Of a stretch of DNA of 64,000 nt, positions 1,319-57,241 are shown piece after piece. The translations under genes and the position numbers were made by a program. Every line of letters starts with the position of its first letter. Within the stretch, counting starts at the first letter, position 1. A model generated the notes under the pieces. It had not been told where the DNA came from. It saw nothing but the letters and a program-made list of their open reading frames with translations, and searched no databases. The DNA is from Enterobacter phage EspM4VN: sequence record LC373201.2; one strand, written 5' to 3'.

Positions 1319-2882
1319 TTACTTGTACAGGCCTGTCACATCAATAGACTTGTGCTGACGGTTGTACTCAGCCGTGTAATCATCCATCACCATGTATTCA
1401 CAGCAGCGGATTTTACTGGAGCCGTAATCGTTGGTGATAGAAACGATGTCACGTGGGTTCAGCTTACAGCGAACGACACGTTGGCCCACAGAACCGAAAC
1501 ACTCCTTCAGGTAGGCCAGGGAGCACACATGCAGACCGTACGAACACAGGTCGGTGTTGTTGTCGTTAACGAATGAGCGAGCCATACGCACGATGGTGCC
1601 GGGAGCGTTGCTGATCGTGTTGCTGTGCTTGTCCATGTAGTTGCCGCGCACGGATTTATAGAGGATGATGTCACCATCTTCATGAATCTCGATGTCGGAG
1701 TACGCCATGAACTCATAAATGCGCCCAGACTGAACCAGAGCAGCCGACGGGTTCTGGAACATTTTGTCCATGAACTTCGCCATACGTTCCAGATTGTCGA
1801 AATCACCTTTCAGCATCAGAGCCAGAACACGCTTGGCGATAGACGTGCCTGTGATGTCGTGGCCAGACCAGCGAACACGGTTGTCGGTCACTTCCACCAG
1901 ACCAGCAGCATACTTCGCGATGGCATCACGAGGACGCATCAGGGAGTAAGCCAGCTTCACGTCTTGGTCTTTGATCGCCTGAACGATGCGGTCATAGGCC
2001 GGATGAGAGGTGGTGATCGTTTCCGGCTTACCATCAATCGCGATGACAACGCTTTCCGGTAGAATCAGAATCTGGTGTTCGTTCAGGAACACATCCAAGT
2101 CTTTCGCGCCGAAGTCCTGCTTGGTCTTCTTGTCACCAGCCACTTCTTCAACATCTTTGATGACGACGGTGAATTCTACAGAAGACAGAGCCAGGCGCAG
2201 AGTGCGGCCGAGGATGGCATCGAAGTAACCAACACGGCGACGGGCATCCAAGGATCCACGGATAGGATAGGTTTCCCCGTCAACCACAACGCCGATTTCA
2301 ACGTTGCTTGGAACTTTGTCCGCACCTTCTGACAACGCCACAGAAATTTCTGCCATCTTGCCGATAGCTTCAACATTAAAAGCACGGCTGTTGCCTTCCA
2401 CTGCAGTCAGTTCAGACTTTTCAAAGAAAGCGCCTGTGAAATTGCCGTCGTTGGTGAGACACAGATACTTGTTGTGGTTCGGTAGATATGCCCCAACATA
2501 CCATTCTGAGTCCTCTTTGTCTTTGGCTGTCCCACCCGGCTGGACTTCGAATACTTTCTGCTCTTCCGGTTTGATAGGAGAGATCACAGTTACCTTGTTT
2601 TCCTCCTCGGTAATGCGGACCAGCAGAGCGCGAGCAATGGTCTTGGCACTGACGCTGAATGCTTCAGCCAGGGCGCGATTGCTCTCACCAGCCTTACTCT
2701 TCACCTGAATCTGCTGGATGTCTTCGGTAGACAGGGATTTCAGCGACAATGGATTGACGCCGAGTTCCGTGTCTGCAACACGTTGTACAGTCGAGCGGGG
2801 TATGCCCAACAGAGTAGCAATTGCGCTCTGGCTGGCGCCTGCCTTCAAATGCTTGAGGATCTTTTCATCAATCTTGTTCATC
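1319..2882 (-). CDS. rIIB: rIIB-like protein (two N-terminal HTH-like segments)
   Basis: Lies directly downstream of the rIIA-like gene, as in T4 and ViI-like phages. Likely start is MNKIDEK at about 2882, because the longer ORF start at 2968 overlaps the rIIA stop at 2913. Called from size and position, not sequence identity. Confidence 0.45.
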
Positions 2883-2912
2883 TTGTAGTTCCCACGTTGG
2901 TTAACAGGACTA

Positions 2913-5669
2913 TTATGCCCTGACAATGGAATTTGAAATAACGTCCAAGTAATCCGAAGAATTTTCAATCGGGTTCAGGGCGCTTGGTTTGTAGTTCTCT
3001 TTCAAGAACCGAATAACACGGTGTCGCTCGATGGTCAATCGATTGTCCCGCCTTGCCTTTAATGTCGGCGTCCGCGCAATATCGAATCGTGTAAACCCAT
3101 GTGTTTGCAGGGCATCCGAAGCGTATCCAAAGATCTGCAACATCTGGTGTTCTGAACGGAATATCTTTTCGTCGCGCTCGTTACTGTACAAATTCACGTT
3201 AAGAGAACTTATCGTGTCTTGGAAATGACTAAAACGACGTTTATCATGGATCGACACTGGGACTTTTGCCATGCTTTGATAATGGCGCACAGTCTGCTCA
3301 TCTAAGATGTCGTCCACAACTCTCATTAACTTGTTGTAACGTTTGACCAATTTGCCATAACGATCGTCTTCAACAACACCGAACGCCTGTTCAACCAGAT
3401 GGATCCCATATTTCAATCGGTCAGCCCCAAGTCGCATACGGCGGTATGATTCCAGTATGCGCCTGGCGCTATCGCGCTCCATCATAGGCTTCACGTTTTC
3501 CAACATGATCTTCAGAATTTCATCGATCGGGATGAAGACTTCTGGGAACTTCTTCATCATCGGAACCGATTTACGACGAGCCAAGAATATTCTGTCGTGA
3601 ATGTTCAGCATATCTTTGATGTACACAGGCTTGCCATCTTCATCCGCGTGAACGGCATGTTTGTACAGAGCCTCGCGGATGCCTCGCGCCGCAGCTGTGG
3701 TCAACGTTCTATCCATCACCTGGTGGATACACTCGTGGCCAGACACCTCAATGTAGACGATGCGCTCGCCCTTATTGATGATGTCAGAGATTTGTTCACC
3801 AGTCAGTTCTTCGTATTGGCGAATATCAAAATCACTTCTTGTGAACGGAAACAAACCAGGATCTTTGGTGACCGGAGGCGTGACATATGTCAGTTCATTC
3901 ATGAACTTGACTTCAGCAGGCTCCAGCACCGCACCCAACCAATCCATGAACTTGTCGGCGAAGAACAGATAATCGATCGTCGTTTCTTCTTCGCCAATCC
4001 AGGACTTGAAGAAGTCATGAAGTTCTTGGGCATTCCTGAACGCAGGGTTGTCCTTAGACTGGTTGCGCTTGGTGACATAAGAAGTGTTCGGTTTGGCCAC
4101 GATGACCATCGTCCCTGTATCTTTCAGTTGCTTGATCTTCAGGTTACGAGCACGGACACTGTCTTCTACAACCACAGTAACATGTTGACCGCGATCAATC
4201 CACTTCTGGATTTCTGAAATGGTCAAAGTACTGGACTCACCCCAGTCATAGAAGATCTCCATGGAGAACGGCGATGACAATTCATTGAACGGAGCGGTGT
4301 GGTCGTAGTCGCGGTCGATCTCAACAGGCAGCGGGTAACGGTAATATGAATCATGGAAGCGCTTGTCTGCCGGATATTCCTTTTCAACCATCTTGCGGAA
4401 CCCGCTGCCGAACATTTCGCTCAGTTTCGCCTTCTCCATATAGAGAGCAAGAGGACCGCGCTTACACGCCATCTCCAGGTCACGCATTTTATCCGTCAGG
4501 ATTGCATTGGCGGTCTCTTTAAACTCCTCAGAGAGCGTCTCACGCGTAAATTCGTCATATGAGAGGTCTTCACGTGATGGCGGTACGTTCAGGGAACCGA
4601 GTTCGAAGAACGTATAGGACGACGGAAACTTGCTCATGATGGAGGAAGTGTCTGGGTCCAGCTGATCCAGGTCAATCGGGTACGACACGCCACCCATCAC
4701 AGCGTAATGGGTGTGGTCGTTGCCCTTCGGCTGGATGTACGTGTTGTTGACCTTGAAATCGTAGCTGATGTCTTCCCAGCCGAAACGGTATGAAGCGTTC
4801 TCAACAACTGGACGTTGTTCAGGGCGCATGACACGACCAAGACGGACCAGTTCATCGGAGAACGCAGAGAAGCGAGCGTTCTTCACTGGGATCTTCACCG
4901 TCATGCCGTTGAATTCATCGGTGTCTTCCGGCTTAGGATCACGGGTTTCAAGATCTTTGGTGATCAGATCGACCGTTGGGATGCGCTTGGCGTTCAGGTA
5001 CATCAGGAAGCGATGGAGTTTGCCGTCCATGCGGCTTTCCACAGTGAACGAATCCGATACCGCAAATGGTGATTTTGAACCAAGGCCGAACGCCCCGATC
5101 TGATCATCGTCTTCTTCCTTCGTACTGTGGAAGAGTGTCGTGTACAGGCCGGGTGAACGGATGATCTCGCCATCTTCACGGCGGAACACCAGAGACCCAT
5201 TGTAGAACCCTGGGACGCCGATGACTTCAGCCGAGTCAGGGATCTCGTCTTCCTTCACGACCATGTTGCCTTCCAACAGCACTTCGTCTTCTTGGGCTGG
5301 GATGGCTTCGCCAATGATCTTCTCAAGCGGCAGGCCGATACCGTAATCACGGATTTCCAGCCATGGCTCAAAGTCGTCAGGTAGATGCACGACAACTCGT
5401 GTGCCCTTCGGTGCAAGGTATTTGCCGTGACGGGCAGGAGGGGGAGTGAGAGGCGCGTAGTGGGATGCTACCATACGGTGCATACGATCACGCATGCCAT
5501 GGGAGTCGATGGCGTTACAGGTGGTTTCACGCAGGGCTGCTGCCTCTTTGTAACGATATAATGATGAGAACAGAGTCTCAAACATCTTGTCGTTCATTTT
5601 GACGTTAAACGCCTGCCCCTGAATGGAAGACGACGAGCGGATAAAGTGCTCGGACTTGCGCATTTTCAT
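2913..5669 (-). CDS. rIIA: rIIA-like protein with N-terminal GHKL (HATPase_c) ATPase domain
   Basis: 918 aa. Motifs: ExxxNAIDSHG (N-box), IRDYGIGLP (G1), GAFGLGSKS (G2). About 900 aa with an N-terminal GHKL domain is characteristic of rIIA. Confidence 0.6.
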   Translation of the reverse strand: MKMRKSEHFIRSSSSIQGQAFNVKMNDKMFETLFSSLYRYKEAAALRETTCNAIDSHGMRDRMHRMVASHYAPLTPPPARHGKYLAPKGTRVVVHLPDDFEPWLEIRDYGIGLPLEKIIGEAIPAQEDEVLLEGNMVVKEDEIPDSAEVIGVPGFYNGSLVFRREDGEIIRSPGLYTTLFHSTKEEDDDQIGAFGLGSKSPFAVSDSFTVESRMDGKLHRFLMYLNAKRIPTVDLITKDLETRDPKPEDTDEFNGMTVKIPVKNARFSAFSDELVRLGRVMRPEQRPVVENASYRFGWEDISYDFKVNNTYIQPKGNDHTHYAVMGGVSYPIDLDQLDPDTSSIMSKFPSSYTFFELGSLNVPPSREDLSYDEFTRETLSEEFKETANAILTDKMRDLEMACKRGPLALYMEKAKLSEMFGSGFRKMVEKEYPADKRFHDSYYRYPLPVEIDRDYDHTAPFNELSSPFSMEIFYDWGESSTLTISEIQKWIDRGQHVTVVVEDSVRARNLKIKQLKDTGTMVIVAKPNTSYVTKRNQSKDNPAFRNAQELHDFFKSWIGEEETTIDYLFFADKFMDWLGAVLEPAEVKFMNELTYVTPPVTKDPGLFPFTRSDFDIRQYEELTGEQISDIINKGERIVYIEVSGHECIHQVMDRTLTTAAARGIREALYKHAVHADEDGKPVYIKDMLNIHDRIFLARRKSVPMMKKFPEVFIPIDEILKIMLENVKPMMERDSARRILESYRRMRLGADRLKYGIHLVEQAFGVVEDDRYGKLVKRYNKLMRVVDDILDEQTVRHYQSMAKVPVSIHDKRRFSHFQDTISSLNVNLYSNERDEKIFRSEHQMLQIFGYASDALQTHGFTRFDIARTPTLKARRDNRLTIERHRVIRFLKENYKPSALNPIENSSDYLDVISNSIVRA

Positions 5670-51096: not shown

Positions 51097-51792
51097 ATGG
51101 CCAGACCATTTGAAAATTACTTCTACCATGAGTCGCTGCTGAAATACATCAATCTGTTCGCCACCATCATGTCTGATCTGAAGGTGGACACAGAGCGCGG
51201 TCTTATGGAAGTCCCGTTACACATGGCCATCGGGCGACGCAATGACCTCAATCGCAACGTGCCGTCCAATATGTTGCCGTTTGCGACGTTCAGCTTTGGG
51301 CAATTTGAACCGAATAAGAACGTGACGAAGTCATTCCACAACCGCCAGAGCACCCAGACAGCAGGGGCGAAGCAACGCATCCCCATCAATATCGATTTTG
51401 AGTACAACATTCGGACGAAGAAATTGATCGAGATGCTTCAGGTGTTGGAACAGATCTATTCTGTGTTCACGCCATCTCTGGACTGCGCTATCAAGGACAA
51501 CGATACACTACAGCAAGACCAGAAGATCAAGCTGCAGCTGACAGGTCACCAGATGTCCGACAACTGGGAGGGAGACGCTTCCGAATCACCACATGTTGAT
51601 TGCACTTTCACCTTCGTGGTCAGTGGGTTCATCTATGGATACGACTATTGGGTGGACAACGGCGGCGGTGGGGATCCTAACGGGATCAAAGAGATAATTA
51701 TCGAAATGTCTAATGATTTGAAAACGCCGTGGTCGGAACTGCCAGAGTGGTTCCGCGTCGATAAAGACGGTGTACATCATCCTGGAGATTGA
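51097..51792 (+). CDS. tail completion/sheath stabiliser (gp15-like, by synteny)
   Basis: 231 aa; gene order matches T4 gp13-14-15-16-17. Confidence 0.45.
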   Translation: MARPFENYFYHESLLKYINLFATIMSDLKVDTERGLMEVPLHMAIGRRNDLNRNVPSNMLPFATFSFGQFEPNKNVTKSFHNRQSTQTAGAKQRIPINIDFEYNIRTKKLIEMLQVLEQIYSVFTPSLDCAIKDNDTLQQDQKIKLQLTGHQMSDNWEGDASESPHVDCTFTFVVSGFIYGYDYWVDNGGGGDPNGIKEIIIEMSNDLKTPWSELPEWFRVDKDGVHHPGD

Positions 51793-52490
51793 TTATGAGT
51801 GCTATGTCAGAACGCCTATTGTCCACCCTCGGTGCTATCCAAGCGCGGGATGAGGTCGCTCAGGAAGTGATGGAGAAGACCGCGCCTGTGGCTGGGAAAG
51901 ATTATGATCCAGATACTGGAGTGTGGTTGGGTGAAAAGCCTGCAGGGTATGAGCCTGTGGTGTTCCCTCCTTCTCTGGACCCAGAAGAGCTGAAGTCCAA
52001 GGATTCCAAAGTCCCAGACTTTGACGACACGGACGCCACCACGGATTACAAACGCATCCGCGACACGACTTACGCCATGCAGGAAGCCACGATGTTCATG
52101 ATGGGACAGGCGGCCAAACTCGCGACGACCACAGAAGCGCCTCGGGCGTTTACAGTCTTCAAGGAGTTGGGTGAACTCATGCGCGGCCTGAACAAAGACT
52201 TGATGGAGAACCAGAAGACCATCAAGGCAGTTACAGGCGACAAAGAGCCTCCAACAGATGACACGACTGTCGAGGTCACAACATCTCCAGATGGTGCAAC
52301 CAAGGTTACAGTCGGGAAACAGGCGCGTTCTTCTCGAGATCTACTCAAGACAATCGAGGATGCCAAGAAGCGTGCTGACGAGCGTACTCAGTCCAAGGTT
52401 AAGCCGAACGAAGAAGTGATAGACGTTCAGGCTGAACAACCTGTGGAACCGAAGGATGAAGGTGAAGACAATGGCGTATCAGAAGCGTGA
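51789..52490 (+). CDS. terminase small subunit (gp16-like, by synteny)
   Basis: 233 aa ORF immediately upstream of, and overlapping, the large terminase. Confidence 0.45.
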   Translation: MIMSAMSERLLSTLGAIQARDEVAQEVMEKTAPVAGKDYDPDTGVWLGEKPAGYEPVVFPPSLDPEELKSKDSKVPDFDDTDATTDYKRIRDTTYAMQEATMFMMGQAAKLATTTEAPRAFTVFKELGELMRGLNKDLMENQKTIKAVTGDKEPPTDDTTVEVTTSPDGATKVTVGKQARSSRDLLKTIEDAKKRADERTQSKVKPNEEVIDVQAEQPVEPKDEGEDNGVSEA

Positions 52491-54681
52491 TATAGAATAT
52501 GCCCCGCTCAAGACGGGGTTCAAGATAGAAGACGTCAAATTGCGTATGGACCAAACGTTCATGCGCAAGCCGTCTGTGCGCGCCCCTCGTGTCCAGTTGA
52601 TGTTGACAGATGAGCAGGAAGATGAATTCGTCGAATGCGCGATGGATGCCCATTACTTCGCTGCCAACTACTACAAGATCACGACTATCGATAAAGGCTT
52701 CATCCTATTCGATATGCACGACTATCAGAAGCAGTTGTTCCATGACTTCCAGGATCACCGCTTCAACGCCGTTGTCCAGGCACGTCAGTCAGGTAAATGT
52801 GTGAAGGGTGACAGCATCGTCGAGGTCTACGACACAGTCAGCCAAGAAGAGTTTAAAGTCACCATCGAGGAGCTTCACAGCCGCTTCGAGGGACCGAACC
52901 ACGCCGAGCCACTGAACGCCTTTGGCAAACACGATAAGTTCGTAGACAGCCGCTTCGGCAAGCGTTATTTCGTTCGCTGTGATATAGGCTGGGTGCCTGT
53001 CATCGCCGCGCACAAGACCAAGCAGTATCAGGAATATGTTGTCGTCACTTCCAGCGGCCGTCGTATCAACGTGGCCGATGATCACATGTTCTTCAATCAG
53101 AATATGAAGGAAGTGTTTGCCAAAGATCTGGTTGCTGGTTCACAGCTGATGACCGAAGAAGGTCTAGAAGAAGTCGTTGAGGTATGGCAGACTGGTGAGA
53201 TGCACCACATGTATGACCTACAGGTGAAATCCAGCGACCAGCGCTACTACACCAACGGCTTCCTCAGTCATAACACGACTGTTGTGGCTGCGTTCCTTCT
53301 CTGGTATGCGATGTTCCACTCTGACAAAGAGATCGCGGTACTGGCGAACAAAGAGAAGCAGGCGATTGAAATCCTTGACCGTATTCGTAAGGCGTATCAG
53401 GATTTGCCATTCTTCATCCAGCAGGGCTGTGAGAAGTTCGGCTCCACGCTCATCGAATTCGAGAACGGCTCGAAGATATACGCCTATGCAACATCTTCTG
53501 ACTCCATCCGTGGTCGATCTGTATCGCTCCTGTATGTGGACGAAGTGGCGTTCATCGAAAACGACTTTGAATTCTGGGAGTCAACATTCCCTGCGATTGC
53601 ATCTGCAGAGACTTCACGTTGTATCCTGACCAGTACACCGAAAGGCCAGCGCGGGTTGTTCTACGACATCGTCACCAAGGCGAACCCAGAACATCCTCAG
53701 TACAACGACTTCAATCTCACAGAGGTTCCATGGTATCGTGTGCCAACATACACCAAGGATCCAAACTGGGAATCCAAGCAGAGGGCGAAGCTGGGCGATG
53801 CACGTTTCGATCAGGAATTTGGCATCAAGTTCCGTGGGTCGGTCGGTTCACTTATCCCGGCCAAGTGCCTGGACAAGATGACCTCGAAGCTGTATCAGGA
53901 GCCGAACGAGTTCACCAAGATCTATCACGACTACGATCCGAAGCGAATCTATATGGGTATCGCAGATACAGGCAAGGGCGTCGAGGGGGATTATTCTGTG
54001 CTGACCATTATCGACATCACAGACTATCCTCACAAGATCGCAGCCAAGTATCGAAACAACACGATACCTCCAATGATGTATGCGTACACAATCGCCGATA
54101 TGGGCGAGAAGTATGGGACGTGTCCAATGTTGGTAGAAACCAACAACGACGTGGGTGGACAGGTAATCACAATTCTATATCAGGAAATTGAATATCCAGA
54201 GATCATCTTCACCACAACAGATGCGAAGGGTACTGGTAAGCGAATCGGCGGTAGGCGGCCTGAACCTGGTATCAACACCAACAAGAAGGTGCGCACAAAC
54301 GGCTGTGCCAACCTGAAAGCCCTGATCGAAAGGGAGATGCTGGTTGTTGACGATCAAGACACGATAGATGAACTCAGTACATTCGTATGGACTGGGACAA
54401 GGTATGAAGCCGATGATGGTTGTCATGATGACTGTGTAATGCCTCTTGTGCTGTATGCATGGGCGGTGAAACAAGAATGGTTTAGTGACCTCACCAATTC
54501 CAGTATCTCAGTCGACATGAGAGGCCGCTTGTCTGCGATGGAAGAATCGCAGATGATGCCTTTCGGTGGTGTGTTGTCGGCTCCTGATCCGTTCTCTGTG
54601 GAGAGTGTGCCAGGATTTGGTGGCGTGCAGGTTTATGACGAACGTTCTGGCATGTCCATGGAAGAATGGCTGAGACGGTGA
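52471..54681 (+). CDS. terminase large subunit (T4 gp17-like) interrupted by a mini-intein
   Basis: Exteins give QARQSGK|TTVVAAFLLWYAMF, matching the T4 gp17 Walker A SRQLGKTTVVAIFLAHF. The C-terminal nuclease region is conserved. Start at 52471 (MAYQK) is preferred by RBS spacing. Confidence 0.85.
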   Translation: MAYQKRDIEYAPLKTGFKIEDVKLRMDQTFMRKPSVRAPRVQLMLTDEQEDEFVECAMDAHYFAANYYKITTIDKGFILFDMHDYQKQLFHDFQDHRFNAVVQARQSGKCVKGDSIVEVYDTVSQEEFKVTIEELHSRFEGPNHAEPLNAFGKHDKFVDSRFGKRYFVRCDIGWVPVIAAHKTKQYQEYVVVTSSGRRINVADDHMFFNQNMKEVFAKDLVAGSQLMTEEGLEEVVEVWQTGEMHHMYDLQVKSSDQRYYTNGFLSHNTTVVAAFLLWYAMFHSDKEIAVLANKEKQAIEILDRIRKAYQDLPFFIQQGCEKFGSTLIEFENGSKIYAYATSSDSIRGRSVSLLYVDEVAFIENDFEFWESTFPAIASAETSRCILTSTPKGQRGLFYDIVTKANPEHPQYNDFNLTEVPWYRVPTYTKDPNWESKQRAKLGDARFDQEFGIKFRGSVGSLIPAKCLDKMTSKLYQEPNEFTKIYHDYDPKRIYMGIADTGKGVEGDYSVLTIIDITDYPHKIAAKYRNNTIPPMMYAYTIADMGEKYGTCPMLVETNNDVGGQVITILYQEIEYPEIIFTTTDAKGTGKRIGGRRPEPGINTNKKVRTNGCANLKALIEREMLVVDDQDTIDELSTFVWTGTRYEADDGCHDDCVMPLVLYAWAVKQEWFSDLTNSSISVDMRGRLSAMEESQMMPFGGVLSAPDPFSVESVPGFGGVQVYDERSGMSMEEWLRR
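52798..53274 (+). other. mini-intein (159 aa) inserted in the terminase Walker A P-loop
   Basis: Begins with Cys (CVKGDSIVEV, block A). Block B is INVADDHMF. Ends LSHN followed by a +1 Thr (block G). There is no homing-endonuclease-sized insert. Removing it restores a canonical P-loop. Confidence 0.7.
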
Positions 54682-54684
54682 TCA

Positions 54685-54695
54685 CTAAATATCTT
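54685..54695 (+). promoter_or_regulatory. late promoter motif CTAAATATCTT
   Basis: About 40 nt upstream of the sheath gene start. Confidence 0.45.
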
Positions 54696-54733
54696 TCAAA
54701 TTGAGCGAAACTCTACCGAGAAGGAATAAGATT

Positions 54734-56632
54734 ATGGCAACTACAAGCTTCAGCGTTGCGCCGTCCGTACAGTGGACGGAGCGTGATGCCACGCTTCAGA
54801 CGTCTCCGTCCGTTGTTGTTCAGGGCGCGACTGTTGGTAAATTCCAGTGGGGTGAAGTTGAACTCCCTGTGCTGGTTACTGGTGGTGAGACTGGTCTGGT
54901 GAAGAAATTCTTCAAACCTAACGATGACACTGCTGTCGACTTCCTGGTCGTGGCGGACTTCCTGTCCTATAGTTCTGTGGCATGGGTCACCCGTGTTGTC
55001 GGACCTCTGGCCAAGAACTCTGTGACCAAAGGCCAAACGGCGATCACCATCAAGAACAAATTGGACTTTGAATCAGCAAGCCCATCAGCATCTATCACCT
55101 GGACTGGTCGCTACCCTGGTTCTCTGGGTAACGATGTGGCGGTGAACATTTGTGACGCTGCGTCTTTCTCTACTTGGGAATTCCGCAACAACTTCGCTTA
55201 TGCTCCGCAGGCTGGTGAATACCACATTGTCGTTCTGGACAAAGTAGGTCGCATTACCAACTCTTCTGGTGCTGTTGGTCAGGTTGAGCGTATCTCCCTG
55301 TCCGGTACTGCGACCGCTGATGGCAACATCACCGTCGATGGCGTGGCTTACGACTTCCTGACTGGTGATACAGCGGCCGAGATTGCTGCTCAGCTGGGCA
55401 CTGATCTGGCGGCTCTGACAAACAAGTTCACCAACGTGGTAGCCAAGTCCAACACTGTGACTTTCACTCGCGTTGACATCGGTCCACAGACTGCAATTGC
55501 TGTTTCTGTTGAAGCCTCCAAAGGCATCACCATCGGCAACGTTGTAACCACTGTTGGTACTTCCGGCTCCATCATCGAGAAGTATGAACTGATGCAGCAG
55601 ACCCAGGGTTCTAAGAAATCCGACGGCGCGAATGCATACTTCAAAGATGTGATCAACGACACGTCCAACTGGGTGTATGTCTTCACCGATACTCTGGCGG
55701 CTGGCGTGACCGAGCTGGAAGGTGGTGTTGACGATTACGATGTGAACCGCGTGGCGGCCATCGAAGTTCTGAACAACGCAGAAGCCTACGCCGCCAAACC
55801 AGTGTTCGCATACTGTGAAGAACTCATCGAGCAGCAGGCCATCATCGATCTGTCCACCGAGCGCAAAGACACCGTGTCCTTCGTTTCTCCACTGCGAGAT
55901 AACGTTGTTGGCAACCGTGGTCGTGAGATGGATGATGTTGTGGCCTGGCGTGAAAGCCTGGTGCGCGACTCCTCCTACTTCTTCATGGATGACAACTGGG
56001 CGTATGTGTACGACAAGTACAACGACAAGATGCGTTGGATCCCTGCTTGTGGCGGTACGGCGGGTGTTTGGGCACGCAGCATTGAGCTGGCTGGTATCTA
56101 CAAGTCTCCGGCGTTCCATAACCGTGGCAAATACAACAACTACAACCGTATGGCGTGGTCTGCGTCTTCTGATGAGCGTGCTGTCCTGTATCGCAACCAG
56201 ATCAACAGCATCGTTACCTTCTCCACCGAAGGCATCGTGCTGTATGGCGACAAGACTGGCCTGACCCGCCCATCTGCGTTCGATCGCATCAACGTTCGCG
56301 GCCTGTTCATCATGGCAGAACAGAACATCGCTGCAATCGCCAAATACTACCTTGGTGAAAACAACGATGAGTTCACTCGCAGCCTGTTCAGCAACGCAGT
56401 GCGTCCGTATCTGCGCCAGCTGACCAACATGGGTGCGATCTATGACGGTACTGTCAAGTGTGATGCAGACAACAACACTGCCGATATCATCGCTGCGAAC
56501 CAGATGGTTGCGGGTATCTGGATGAAACCAGAATACTCTATCAACTGGGTGTACCTGGACTTCGCTGCTGTTCGTCCGGATATGGAGTTCAGCGAGATCG
56601 AAACGGGTGGTGGCATCGTAGCCGCATCCTGA
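54734..56632 (+). CDS. tail sheath protein (T4 gp18-like)
   Basis: GKFQWGEV near the N-terminus. IVLYGDKTGLTRPSAFDRINVRGLF parallels gp18 YVLYGDKTATSVPSPFDRINVRRLF. Confidence 0.85.
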   Translation: MATTSFSVAPSVQWTERDATLQTSPSVVVQGATVGKFQWGEVELPVLVTGGETGLVKKFFKPNDDTAVDFLVVADFLSYSSVAWVTRVVGPLAKNSVTKGQTAITIKNKLDFESASPSASITWTGRYPGSLGNDVAVNICDAASFSTWEFRNNFAYAPQAGEYHIVVLDKVGRITNSSGAVGQVERISLSGTATADGNITVDGVAYDFLTGDTAAEIAAQLGTDLAALTNKFTNVVAKSNTVTFTRVDIGPQTAIAVSVEASKGITIGNVVTTVGTSGSIIEKYELMQQTQGSKKSDGANAYFKDVINDTSNWVYVFTDTLAAGVTELEGGVDDYDVNRVAAIEVLNNAEAYAAKPVFAYCEELIEQQAIIDLSTERKDTVSFVSPLRDNVVGNRGREMDDVVAWRESLVRDSSYFFMDDNWAYVYDKYNDKMRWIPACGGTAGVWARSIELAGIYKSPAFHNRGKYNNYNRMAWSASSDERAVLYRNQINSIVTFSTEGIVLYGDKTGLTRPSAFDRINVRGLFIMAEQNIAAIAKYYLGENNDEFTRSLFSNAVRPYLRQLTNMGAIYDGTVKCDADNNTADIIAANQMVAGIWMKPEYSINWVYLDFAAVRPDMEFSEIETGGGIVAAS

Positions 56633-56637
56633 TAAGA

Positions 56638-56656
56638 AAGCCCGCTCCGGCGGGCA
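56638..56656 (+). terminator. terminator-like hairpin GCCCGCtccgGCGGGC
   Basis: Perfect stem after the sheath stop. Confidence 0.45.
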
Positions 56657-56660
56657 ATTT

Positions 56661-56668
56661 CTTTGAAG
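56661..56668 (+). promoter_or_regulatory. late promoter motif CTAAATAG
   Basis: About 40 nt upstream of the tube gene ATG at 56709. Confidence 0.4.
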
Positions 56669-56708
56669 ACCTAAATAGAATTGTGTAACTCTTTTTGGAG
56701 AATCTATA

Positions 56709-57241
56709 ATGGCTACAGTTAATGAATTTCGCGCGGCCATGTCACGTGGGGCGGCGTACAACGTCAGCACCGCTGGCGTGTGACCGTCAACTTCCCAGCT
56801 TTCGTAGCAGGTTCGGACACCATTCGTGACGTGTCCCTGTTGGCTGTAACGACCAACACCCCTACTGGTCAGCTGGGCGAGATCCTTGTGCCTTGGGGTG
56901 GTCGTGAACTTCCATTCCCTGGTGACCGTCGCTTCGAAGCACTGCCTATCACATTCATCAACGTGGTAGAGAACGGACCATACAATGCCTTTGAGGTCTG
57001 GCAGCAGTACATCAACGGTAGCAACAACAACCGTGCAAGCGCGAACGCTGACGACTACTTCCGTGACGTGATCATGGAGTTGCTGGACGCGAACGACAAC
57101 GTCACCAAGACCTGGACTCTGCAGGGGACCTGGCCTCAGAACCTCGGTCAGCTGGAACTGGATATGTCCGCGATGGACTCATATACTCAGTTCACTGTTG
57201 ATTTGCGCTACTTCCAAGCCATCTCTGACCGATCTCTCTAA
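56709..57241 (+). CDS. tail tube protein (T4 gp19-like), apparent frameshift near 56776-56783
   Basis: ATG at 56709 with a GGAGAA RBS gives MATVNEFRAAMSRGAAYNVSTAGV, then a TGA stop. The main frame starts 1 nt back with VTVNFPAF... through QGTWPQNLGQLELDMSAMDSYTQFTVDLRYF, matching gp19 GLWPTNVGELQLDWDSNNEIQTFEVTLALDYW. One inserted nucleotide fuses them. Confidence 0.75.

Follow-up and report, generated by a model that had tools for sequence, protein, structure and literature searches.

A predicted class 1 mini-intein in the Walker A motif of the large terminase of Enterobacter phage EspM4VN, and its patchy distribution among related phages

The large terminase (TerL) gene of Enterobacter phage EspM4VN, contained within a 64,000-nucleotide stretch of sequence record LC373201.2 (hereafter the window, to which all coordinates refer unless another record is named), is interrupted at 52798-53274 on the plus strand by an insert of 159 codons. 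The insert is very probably a cis-splicing class 1 mini-intein that lies at the GK|T position of the TerL Walker A motif and uses the standard splicing pathway. As an element it has already been described, having been annotated in sister phages since 2013; it is an ordinary mini-intein of class 1, located at a classic site, adds one more example to the well-documented tendency of inteins to reside in P-loop ATPases and phage terminases, and settles no open question. What is added here is its patchy distribution over approximately 277 phage records, a pattern of allele exchange between genera, and the many naturally split relatives that it possesses.

On the basis of sequence similarity, the host gene is a large terminase of the T4 gp17 type (Terminase_6). 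An earlier note, made from the letters of the window alone, had proposed a T4 gp17-like terminase with a matching P-loop, and this is borne out by Pfam matches above cut-off for both Terminase_6N (61 bits, cut-off 22) and Terminase_6C (29.2 bits, cut-off 22.6) in the full protein, as well as by an alignment of the spliced 582-amino acid sequence with T4 gp17 (structures 3ezk and 3cpe) that has an E value of 2e-72 and runs gapless through the junction. At the junction itself, 'vvqarqsgkttvvaafllw' of the spliced window protein is aligned with 'cnlsrqlgkttvvaiflah' of T4 gp17, such that removal of the insert restores a Walker A motif with a continuous GKTT relative to the T4 gp17 structures. The gapless alignment therefore places the insert between the invariant Lys and Thr of Walker A, the Gly-Lys codons of which occupy positions 52792-52797. 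The precursor gene, as delimited by the open reading frame (ORF) listing, Pfam and the starts of homologues, extends from a probable start at 52471 to 54681 on the plus strand and would thus encode 736 amino acids (84.5 kDa), of which the intein represents residues 110-268. Upstream of the intein, a 109-amino acid N-extein (52471-52797, plus strand) closes with the N-terminal half of Walker A (...QARQSGK), its alignment with T4 gp17 reaching as far as 'srqlgk'. Downstream, a 468-amino acid C-extein (53275-54678, plus strand), delimited by Pfam and by the T4 gp17 alignment, begins with the remainder of Walker A (TTVVAAF) and carries the rest of the ATPase domain followed by the RNase H-like nuclease domain.

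The boundaries of the insert given in the earlier note proved to be exact. The insert spans 477 nucleotides, equivalent to 159 codons (18.4 kDa) that are in frame and contain no stop codon, and consists of a HINT splicing domain only. It begins with TGT (Cys1) at 52798-52800, ends with CAT-AAC (His-Asn) at 53269-53274, and is followed by ACG (Thr+1) at 53275-53277; the 5' flank reads ...FNAVVQARQSGK (...NAVVQARQSGK) and the 3' flank TTVVAAFLLWYAMF. In G+C content, the insert (0.516) does not differ from the exteins or from the window overall (0.49-0.51).

Intein blocks A, B, F and G, which the earlier note had recognised together with the initial Cys, the terminal His-Asn and the +1 Thr, can all be identified, and their catalytic residues were compared across 22 homologous inserts that are 150-179 amino acids long and 32-84% identical to the window insert. 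Residues C1, A93, D94, H96, D140, S157, H158 and N159 are invariant among the 22, and the +1 residue is always Thr. Block A (CVKGDSIVEVYDT; 52798-52836, plus strand) thus supplies Cys1, the nucleophile of the N-S acyl shift, and block B (GRRINVADDHMFF; 53056-53094, plus strand) supplies the invariant His96, with the usual Thr of this block replaced by the invariant Ala93, the sole deviation from the canonical motifs. Block F (HHMYDLQVKSSDQRYYTNG; 53203-53259, plus strand) contains the invariant Asp140, and block G (FLSHN), which together with the +1 Thr lies at 53260-53277 (plus strand), contains the invariant S157, H158 and N159. In this arrangement, Thr+1 doubles as the second nucleophile of splicing and as the Thr of Walker A. 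A class 3 intein, which is characterised by a WCT triplet, is ruled out by the presence of Cys1, by the occurrence of Asp140 in block F with no conserved Cys, and by the S-H-N of block G.

The lack of room for an endonuclease, also remarked upon in the earlier note, is evident from the fact that only approximately 40 residues separate blocks B and F, and that no endonuclease domain was found in the insert, the Pfam matches of which are solely of the HINT type. With 159 amino acids (mini-inteins having approximately 130-200), a single compact domain in the structural model, and no LAGLIDADG, HNH or other endonuclease domain, the element is a mini-intein.

The assignment of the insert to the inteins rests on profile comparisons, a predicted structure and conservation. 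Searched alone, the insert matches the Pfam Intein_splicing family (PF14890) with an E value of 4e-8, and a phmmer search of the single insert against the PDB returned 8 matches, all of them inteins, with weak E values (0.006-0.8). Because these E values were weak, a profile was built from 18 of the 22 homologous inserts and a structure was predicted with AlphaFold2 from the same alignment. The best PDB matches of the profile are VidaL (2e-10), gp41-1 (1.4e-9), and the consensus TerL intein CatC (2e-8). The AlphaFold2 model (predicted local distance difference test score 94.9, predicted TM score 0.87) forms a single compact domain that is mostly beta and includes two short helices, and a Foldseek comparison of this model with the PDB gave inteins at every rank from 1 to 40, the best being VidaL (E value 4e-11, TM 0.76/0.83). 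The HINT fold is therefore supported by both the model and its structural neighbours, in line with the identity proposed in the earlier note. A search of PHROGs with the intein matched no family.

Three observations weigh against a cis-splicing intein. First, single-sequence scores against the curated hidden Markov models (HMMs) fall just under their thresholds: 33.7 bits against a gathering score of 35.8 for PF14890 and, for the TIGRFAM models of the N- and C-terminal intein regions, 19 against 24.5 (TIGR01445) and 13.3 against 15.6 (TIGR01443). The alignment to intein HMMs that the earlier note had suggested is thus significant by E value or nearly so, but narrowly misses the curated bit thresholds. 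Second, the block B motif is A-D-x-H in every member of the family in place of the canonical T-x-x-H, a substitution that could slow the first step of splicing. Third, no experimental splicing test for any Ackermannviridae TerL, and no data on a spliced product, were found in the literature. A proteomics paper on Vi01-like phages that was checked for evidence of splicing gives only spectral counts for TerL and no junction information, and names the gene of one phage 'terminase large subunit precursor'. For mycobacteriophages, the TerL inteins TerL1-b, -c and -e, TerL6-f and Pham3880-g splice efficiently in a reporter (PMC5050341), with TerL1-a, located at the K|T site and described as a classic P-loop insertion, lying outside the reporter-assayed set (PMC5050341).

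The block B substitution and the slightly sub-threshold HMM scores would also be expected of a decaying or partly active intein that undergoes mainly N- or C-terminal cleavage and wastes much of the TerL precursor. We regard this as very unlikely, given that the Ala is retained at 32-84% identity, that the ratio of nonsynonymous to synonymous substitution rates (dN/dS) does not exceed 0.18, and that all carriers are viable lytic isolates. In addition, the profile alignment shows that VidaL, a functional intein, possesses the same block B Ala. As the Ala is invariant across inserts of such divergent sequence, it points to a lineage trait rather than to decay.

The estimates of selection come from codon alignments of the TerL genes of nine phages, namely the window phage, LIMEstone1, Ag3, pSal-SNUABM-02, AV101, PhaxI, LPEK22, May, and Serratia 2050H1. 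In pairs where the synonymous distance (dS) is unsaturated, dN/dS of the intein is 0.01-0.18, and the protein sequence of the intein is therefore maintained by selection. Purifying selection of this kind would be anticipated if TerL were inactivated whenever splicing failed. Salmonella phage 38 (L012, KR296692.1) was excluded from the codon analyses. In the record of this phage, the annotation breaks each of TerL, gp13, gp15 and the sheath into two or three pieces, probably as a result of frameshift sequencing errors rather than biology.

An alternative interpretation of the HINT fold is a domain that does not splice and is retained in the mature terminase. This would fit a weak match to PT-HINT (PF07591; E value 3e-4, 21.4 bits) and the product names of Dickeya phage records, in that the GenBank products of phiD3, phiDP23.1 and RC-2014 call the gene 'pretoxin HINT domain protein'. 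However, the PT-HINT score lies below its cut-off of 27.7 bits and is weaker than the intein match, no toxin domain is found downstream, and a GK|T motif with 159 residues inserted could not bind ATP. Moreover, all of the splicing residues are invariant and insert-free homologues are colinear, making a retained HINT domain highly improbable. A pretoxin-HINT or polymorphic toxin is likewise ruled out by the sub-threshold score and by the fact that the downstream sequence encodes the terminase ATPase and nuclease.

Interruption of the gene at the RNA level by a group I or group II intron also has precedent, since T4-like and LIMEstone-type phages carry introns in other essential genes (PMC3296691). 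Here the probability of an intron is negligible: the insert maintains the reading frame without stops, is under selection at the protein level, and has a HINT fold, and a search of 52300-54800 against Rfam gave no match at E<=1 and hence no sign of an RNA intron. An RNA intron was rejected on the grounds of the Rfam result, the uninterrupted frame and the protein-level selection.

If the insert is an intein, then TerL would be translated as an 84.5-kDa precursor in which the P-loop is physically interrupted, and within which the HINT domain would fold. Splicing would begin with an N-S acyl shift of Cys1 at the Lys-Cys bond, followed by trans-esterification as Thr+1 attacks the thioester, cyclisation of Asn159 to free the 18.4-kDa intein, and finally an O-N shift that would yield a native Lys-Thr peptide bond. 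What is expected to result is a terminase of the gp17 type (66.1 kDa) whose P-loop (...RQSGKTTVVAAF...) is intact and which would then bind ATP and package DNA. The ligated junction would read ...ARQSGKTTVVAAF..., and the junctions of the precursor would read ...SGKCVKGD... and ...LSHNTTVV.... The data establish the anatomy of the insert, its fold, the conserved catalytic residues, purifying selection, precise alleles with and without the intein, and recombinant intein alleles. From these features we infer that splicing occurs and how efficient it may be; and we strongly infer, as did the earlier note, that the phage would need splicing to build its packaging ATPase. Under this model the intein would persist because its imprecise removal would disrupt an essential gene; its movement or loss would depend solely on ordinary homologous recombination among relatives that infect the same cell.

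A refinement that is compatible with a splicing intein is that splicing is conditional, the intein being kept as a post-translational switch and not as a neutral parasite, for example one that holds back maturation of the ATPase until late infection or that senses redox or temperature. Possible regulatory roles for P-loop and TerL inteins have been discussed by Kelley et al. (PMC5050341), and the presence of the intein under strong purifying selection in approximately 277 records from five or more genera might be taken to favour such a role. Nevertheless, the need to splice fully explains purifying selection, a conserved disulfide trap is not evident (the second Cys is unconserved, with C61 of the window intein being Ser in most homologues), and intein-free alleles work in close relatives, including Erwinia phages phiEa2809 and Bue1 and the metagenomic allele P0007, the extein of which is 85% identical. 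A regulatory switch therefore appears improbable.

As the earlier note had supposed, the phage belongs to the Ackermannviridae, as judged from its TerL relatives: nucleotide identity of the gene is 93% to Dickeya Limestonevirus phages and 91% to Agtrevirus-type phages, and the intein is 99.4% identical in protein sequence to that of LIMEstone1, a Dickeya Limestonevirus. The intein is found in approximately 277 phage records that represent the genera Limestonevirus, Agtrevirus, Kuttervirus, Taipeivirus and Miltonvirus, all of these carriers being viable cultured isolates, and Vibrio phage VP-1 (Vapseptimavirus) has a 179-amino acid version in the same position.

Intein-free alleles were sought by searching the spliced extein against 5.8 billion proteins, and by a 60-nucleotide probe of the spliced junction. 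Metagenomic proteins in which RQSGK|TTVVAAF is continuous include P0007 (85% identical extein), P0012/13 (77-78%) and P0015/16 (73-76%), and the metagenomic intein-free alleles keep the gene order gp15-TerS-TerL-sheath. With the junction probe, an intein-free TerL was found in only two cultured phages (four database records), phiEa2809 and Bue1, both of which are Ackermannviridae of the genus Nezavisimistyvirus. The more distant Vibrio phages K493, K475, K440 and GR28A also possess no intein. Comparison of intein-free and intein-bearing DNA shows a junction that is precise to the codon, and the neighbour-joining tree built from exteins shows carriers interspersed with non-carriers. The neighbour-joining trees carry no bootstrap support and were used only for patchiness; the case for recombination is instead based on dS contrasts and identity profiles. 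From the interleaved pattern and the precise intein-free alleles, it follows that the insert is, on sequence grounds, an optional element with exact borders rather than an ordinary domain of terminases of this family. This answers, in favour of an intein, the comparison with related terminases that the earlier note had put forward as a means of telling an intein from an in-frame domain.

The histories of the intein and of the gene that hosts it do not coincide. In the case of the kuttervirus pair PhaxI and LPEK22, the exteins are 98.3% identical in protein sequence and the inteins 78.6%; dS is 0.18 for the N-extein, 0.61 for the C-extein, and saturated for the intein. Nucleotide identity in this pair is 97-98% up to the 5' border of the intein and drops to approximately 70% precisely there. 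The converse is seen for PhaxI (Cvivirinae) and AV101 (Aglimvirinae), with an intein dS of 0.30 and an extein dS greater than 1.3. Here, a tract from approximately -63 to approximately +385 relative to the intein start is 94-100% identical, with flanks that are 60-85% identical, and between the TerL genes of AV101 and Ag3 the pattern is the complement of this. The PhaxI-type allele is present at an identity of at least 95% in 94 records, followed by a gap and then by 181 records at 60-80%. Among kutterviruses there are two discrete intein allele classes that are 78.6% identical with no intermediates, and discrete classes with a protein divergence of approximately 21-27% are found on nearly identical exteins.

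This pattern is read as homologous recombination between co-infecting relatives. Recombination breakpoints occur elsewhere in the TerL gene in addition to the intein border, and for this reason intein-specific homing cannot be claimed. Continuing, possibly assisted, mobility of the endonuclease-less mini-intein within the Ackermannviridae is rather unlikely; if exchange were intein-specific and not generic T4-like mosaicism, it would show how inteins that lack an endonuclease stay in circulation. A possible driver of such mobility is a free-standing homing endonuclease that acts in trans, for instance a GIY-YIG gene located between the small terminase (TerS) and TerL genes. Free-standing homing endonuclease genes are present at this position in LIMEstone1 (L006, 1809-2693) and pSal-SNUABM-02 (L010, 1809-2687), the former encoding F-LimIX, of the GIY-YIG type according to the LIMEstone1 paper, and the latter a protein with a NUMOD3 motif. 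The endonuclease insertion accounts for the fact that Dickeya phage matches to the TerL query begin no earlier than base 75. In the window, no homing endonuclease gene adjoins TerL, as TerS overlaps TerL (52456-52490, as in Ag3) and the tail sheath gene follows. The link between the free-standing endonucleases and intein exchange is speculative, since PhaxI, AV101 and LPEK22, in which exchange is clearest, lack an endonuclease gene of this kind between TerS and TerL; PhaxI does have an annotated endonuclease gene upstream of gp14.

The earlier note had considered a self-contained mini-intein at this site a useful evolutionary marker. This value is weakened by the present data, because an intein that is patchy within the family and the alleles of which are exchanged between genera is a poor simple phylogenetic marker. 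For the same reason of separate histories, TerL phylogenies of the Ackermannviridae need the intein to be removed. With respect to annotation, the gene would be better named 'terminase large subunit precursor', with the intein given as a mature-peptide feature, than 'pretoxin HINT domain protein' or 'hypothetical protein'.

Previous mentions of the element are brief. The 2013 announcement of Salmonella phage Marshall states that TerL 'is interrupted by an intein' (PMC3853055), and the 2019 announcement of Klebsiella phage Magnus describes the large terminase as likewise intein-interrupted (PMC6763660); each remark consists of one sentence, with no insertion site, splicing test or distribution analysis (PMC3853055, PMC6763660). 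Introns and homing endonucleases are listed in the genome paper of LIMEstone1, but the intein is missing from that list (PMC3296691). The TerL 'intein' of the Kuttervirus phages Marshall and Maynard (RefSeq YP_008772116.1, P0121) interrupts the same host gene, is also 159 amino acids long, and is 74% identical to the window insert. It thus represents a different allele from the window intein, which is 99.4% identical to the inteins of Dickeya Limestonevirus phages. The other TerLs of Kuttervirus and of Taipeivirus, the genus of Magnus, that were examined have an intein at the same GK|T site.

Among characterised systems, the mycobacteriophage intein TerL1-a occupies the same K|T position in Walker A, and its host ATPase is likewise blocked until splicing (Kelley et al. 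2016, PMC5050341). The hosts differ, in that TerL1-a resides in Terminase_1-family TerLs of actinophages (PMC5050341) and the window intein in a TerL of the Terminase_6 type, and the Terminase_6-family inteins of that survey are found at site f, the C-motif, unlike that of the window (PMC5050341). Furthermore, some of the inteins tested there (TerL1-b, TerL1-c) carry active endonucleases (PMC5050341), whereas the window intein carries none.

The closest solved structures, by profile and by fold, are VidaL (6vgv) and Cat-TerL (6dsl), the latter a consensus of AceL-TerL and GOS-TerL. Inteins of this group are compact, endonuclease-free HINT domains like that of the window, and VidaL shares the Ala of block B. 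In contrast, AceL-TerL, GOS-TerL and VidaL are naturally split and splice in trans, whereas the window intein is contiguous and predicted to splice in cis, and sequence identity is only approximately 22%; AceL-TerL and GOS-TerL also use Cys at +1 where the window has Thr. As a compact, 159-amino acid Cys1/Thr+1 intein from mesophilic enterobacterial phages that is related to the engineered TerL/VidaL split inteins, the element could modestly extend the set available for protein engineering.

Many members of the family to which the window intein belongs are themselves split, the break following the first helix and immediately preceding the invariant K47-F48. Approximately 60 metagenomic proteins, together with a 'terminase large subunit' of Salicola phage SCTP-2 (P0153), begin with Met followed by intein sequence from the invariant Lys47-Phe48 of an RKF motif. 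These proteins, which were identified among P0122-P0197, contain the C-terminal 113-120 amino acids (approximately) of the intein and continue past S-H-N, with Thr or Ser as the +1 residue, into TerL sequence. Their number indicates that the TerL P-loop intein frequently occurs in split form in metagenomes and jumbo phages. Many of these proteins are short (about 230-300 amino acids), and may represent TerL genes that are fragmented further or contigs that are truncated. The window intein, by comparison, is encoded in one uninterrupted frame, and is thus related to the split TerL inteins but is itself unsplit.

A further split arrangement occurs in a cultured phage. In Delftia phage PhiW-14 (L014; GQ357915.1 40360-45647, reverse complement), TerL is broken inside a homologous P-loop intein into ORFs at 1910-2377 and 2426-4183 of that locus. 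The first is an unannotated ORF of 155 amino acids that comprises the N-terminal part of TerL up to ARQMGK plus a 43-amino acid N-intein, and ends with TGA TAA. The two stops are followed by a terminator-like GC hairpin and its T-run, then by a GGAG ribosome-binding site, and lastly by a fresh ATG at which the annotated gp17 opens with the C-intein (MDKPSRKFV...ASHN|TTTVAAF). From its sequence, this looks like a naturally, and atypically, split TerL intein.

Related inteins also occupy neighbouring positions of the same P-loop, as evidenced by the terminase of Campylobacter phage CPt10 (L015, 78-2273), where a homologous mini-intein (PRQ|CIEAN...LSHN|SSKSTTT) is inserted three residues upstream of the window site and has Ser at +1. 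The intein of CPt10/CP21 is 28-30% identical to that of the window over 71% of the query and similarly resides in the P-loop of a gp17-like TerL, and the CPt10/CP21 record carries the PS00881 protein-splicing signature.

With regard to the start of the host gene, the insert lies within a 741-amino acid ORF at 52456-54681 (plus strand), which is the longest TerL ORF and opens at ATG 52456 (MKVKTMAYQ...). The true start, however, is probably ATG 52471, because homologues begin with MAYQKRD; AAGGTGAAGACA precedes ATG 52471 and is a plausible ribosome-binding site. The start of TerL is overlapped by the TerS gene (51789-52490, plus strand), which was identified by a match to PHROG 735, terminase small subunit (E value 1.8e-50), and the tail sheath gene lies downstream of TerL at 54701-56632 (plus strand). 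Antisense to the sheath gene is an ORF of 561 amino acids on the minus strand (55085-56770), which is most likely a non-coding shadow of the codon pattern of the sheath gene, its lack of stop codons being due to chance.

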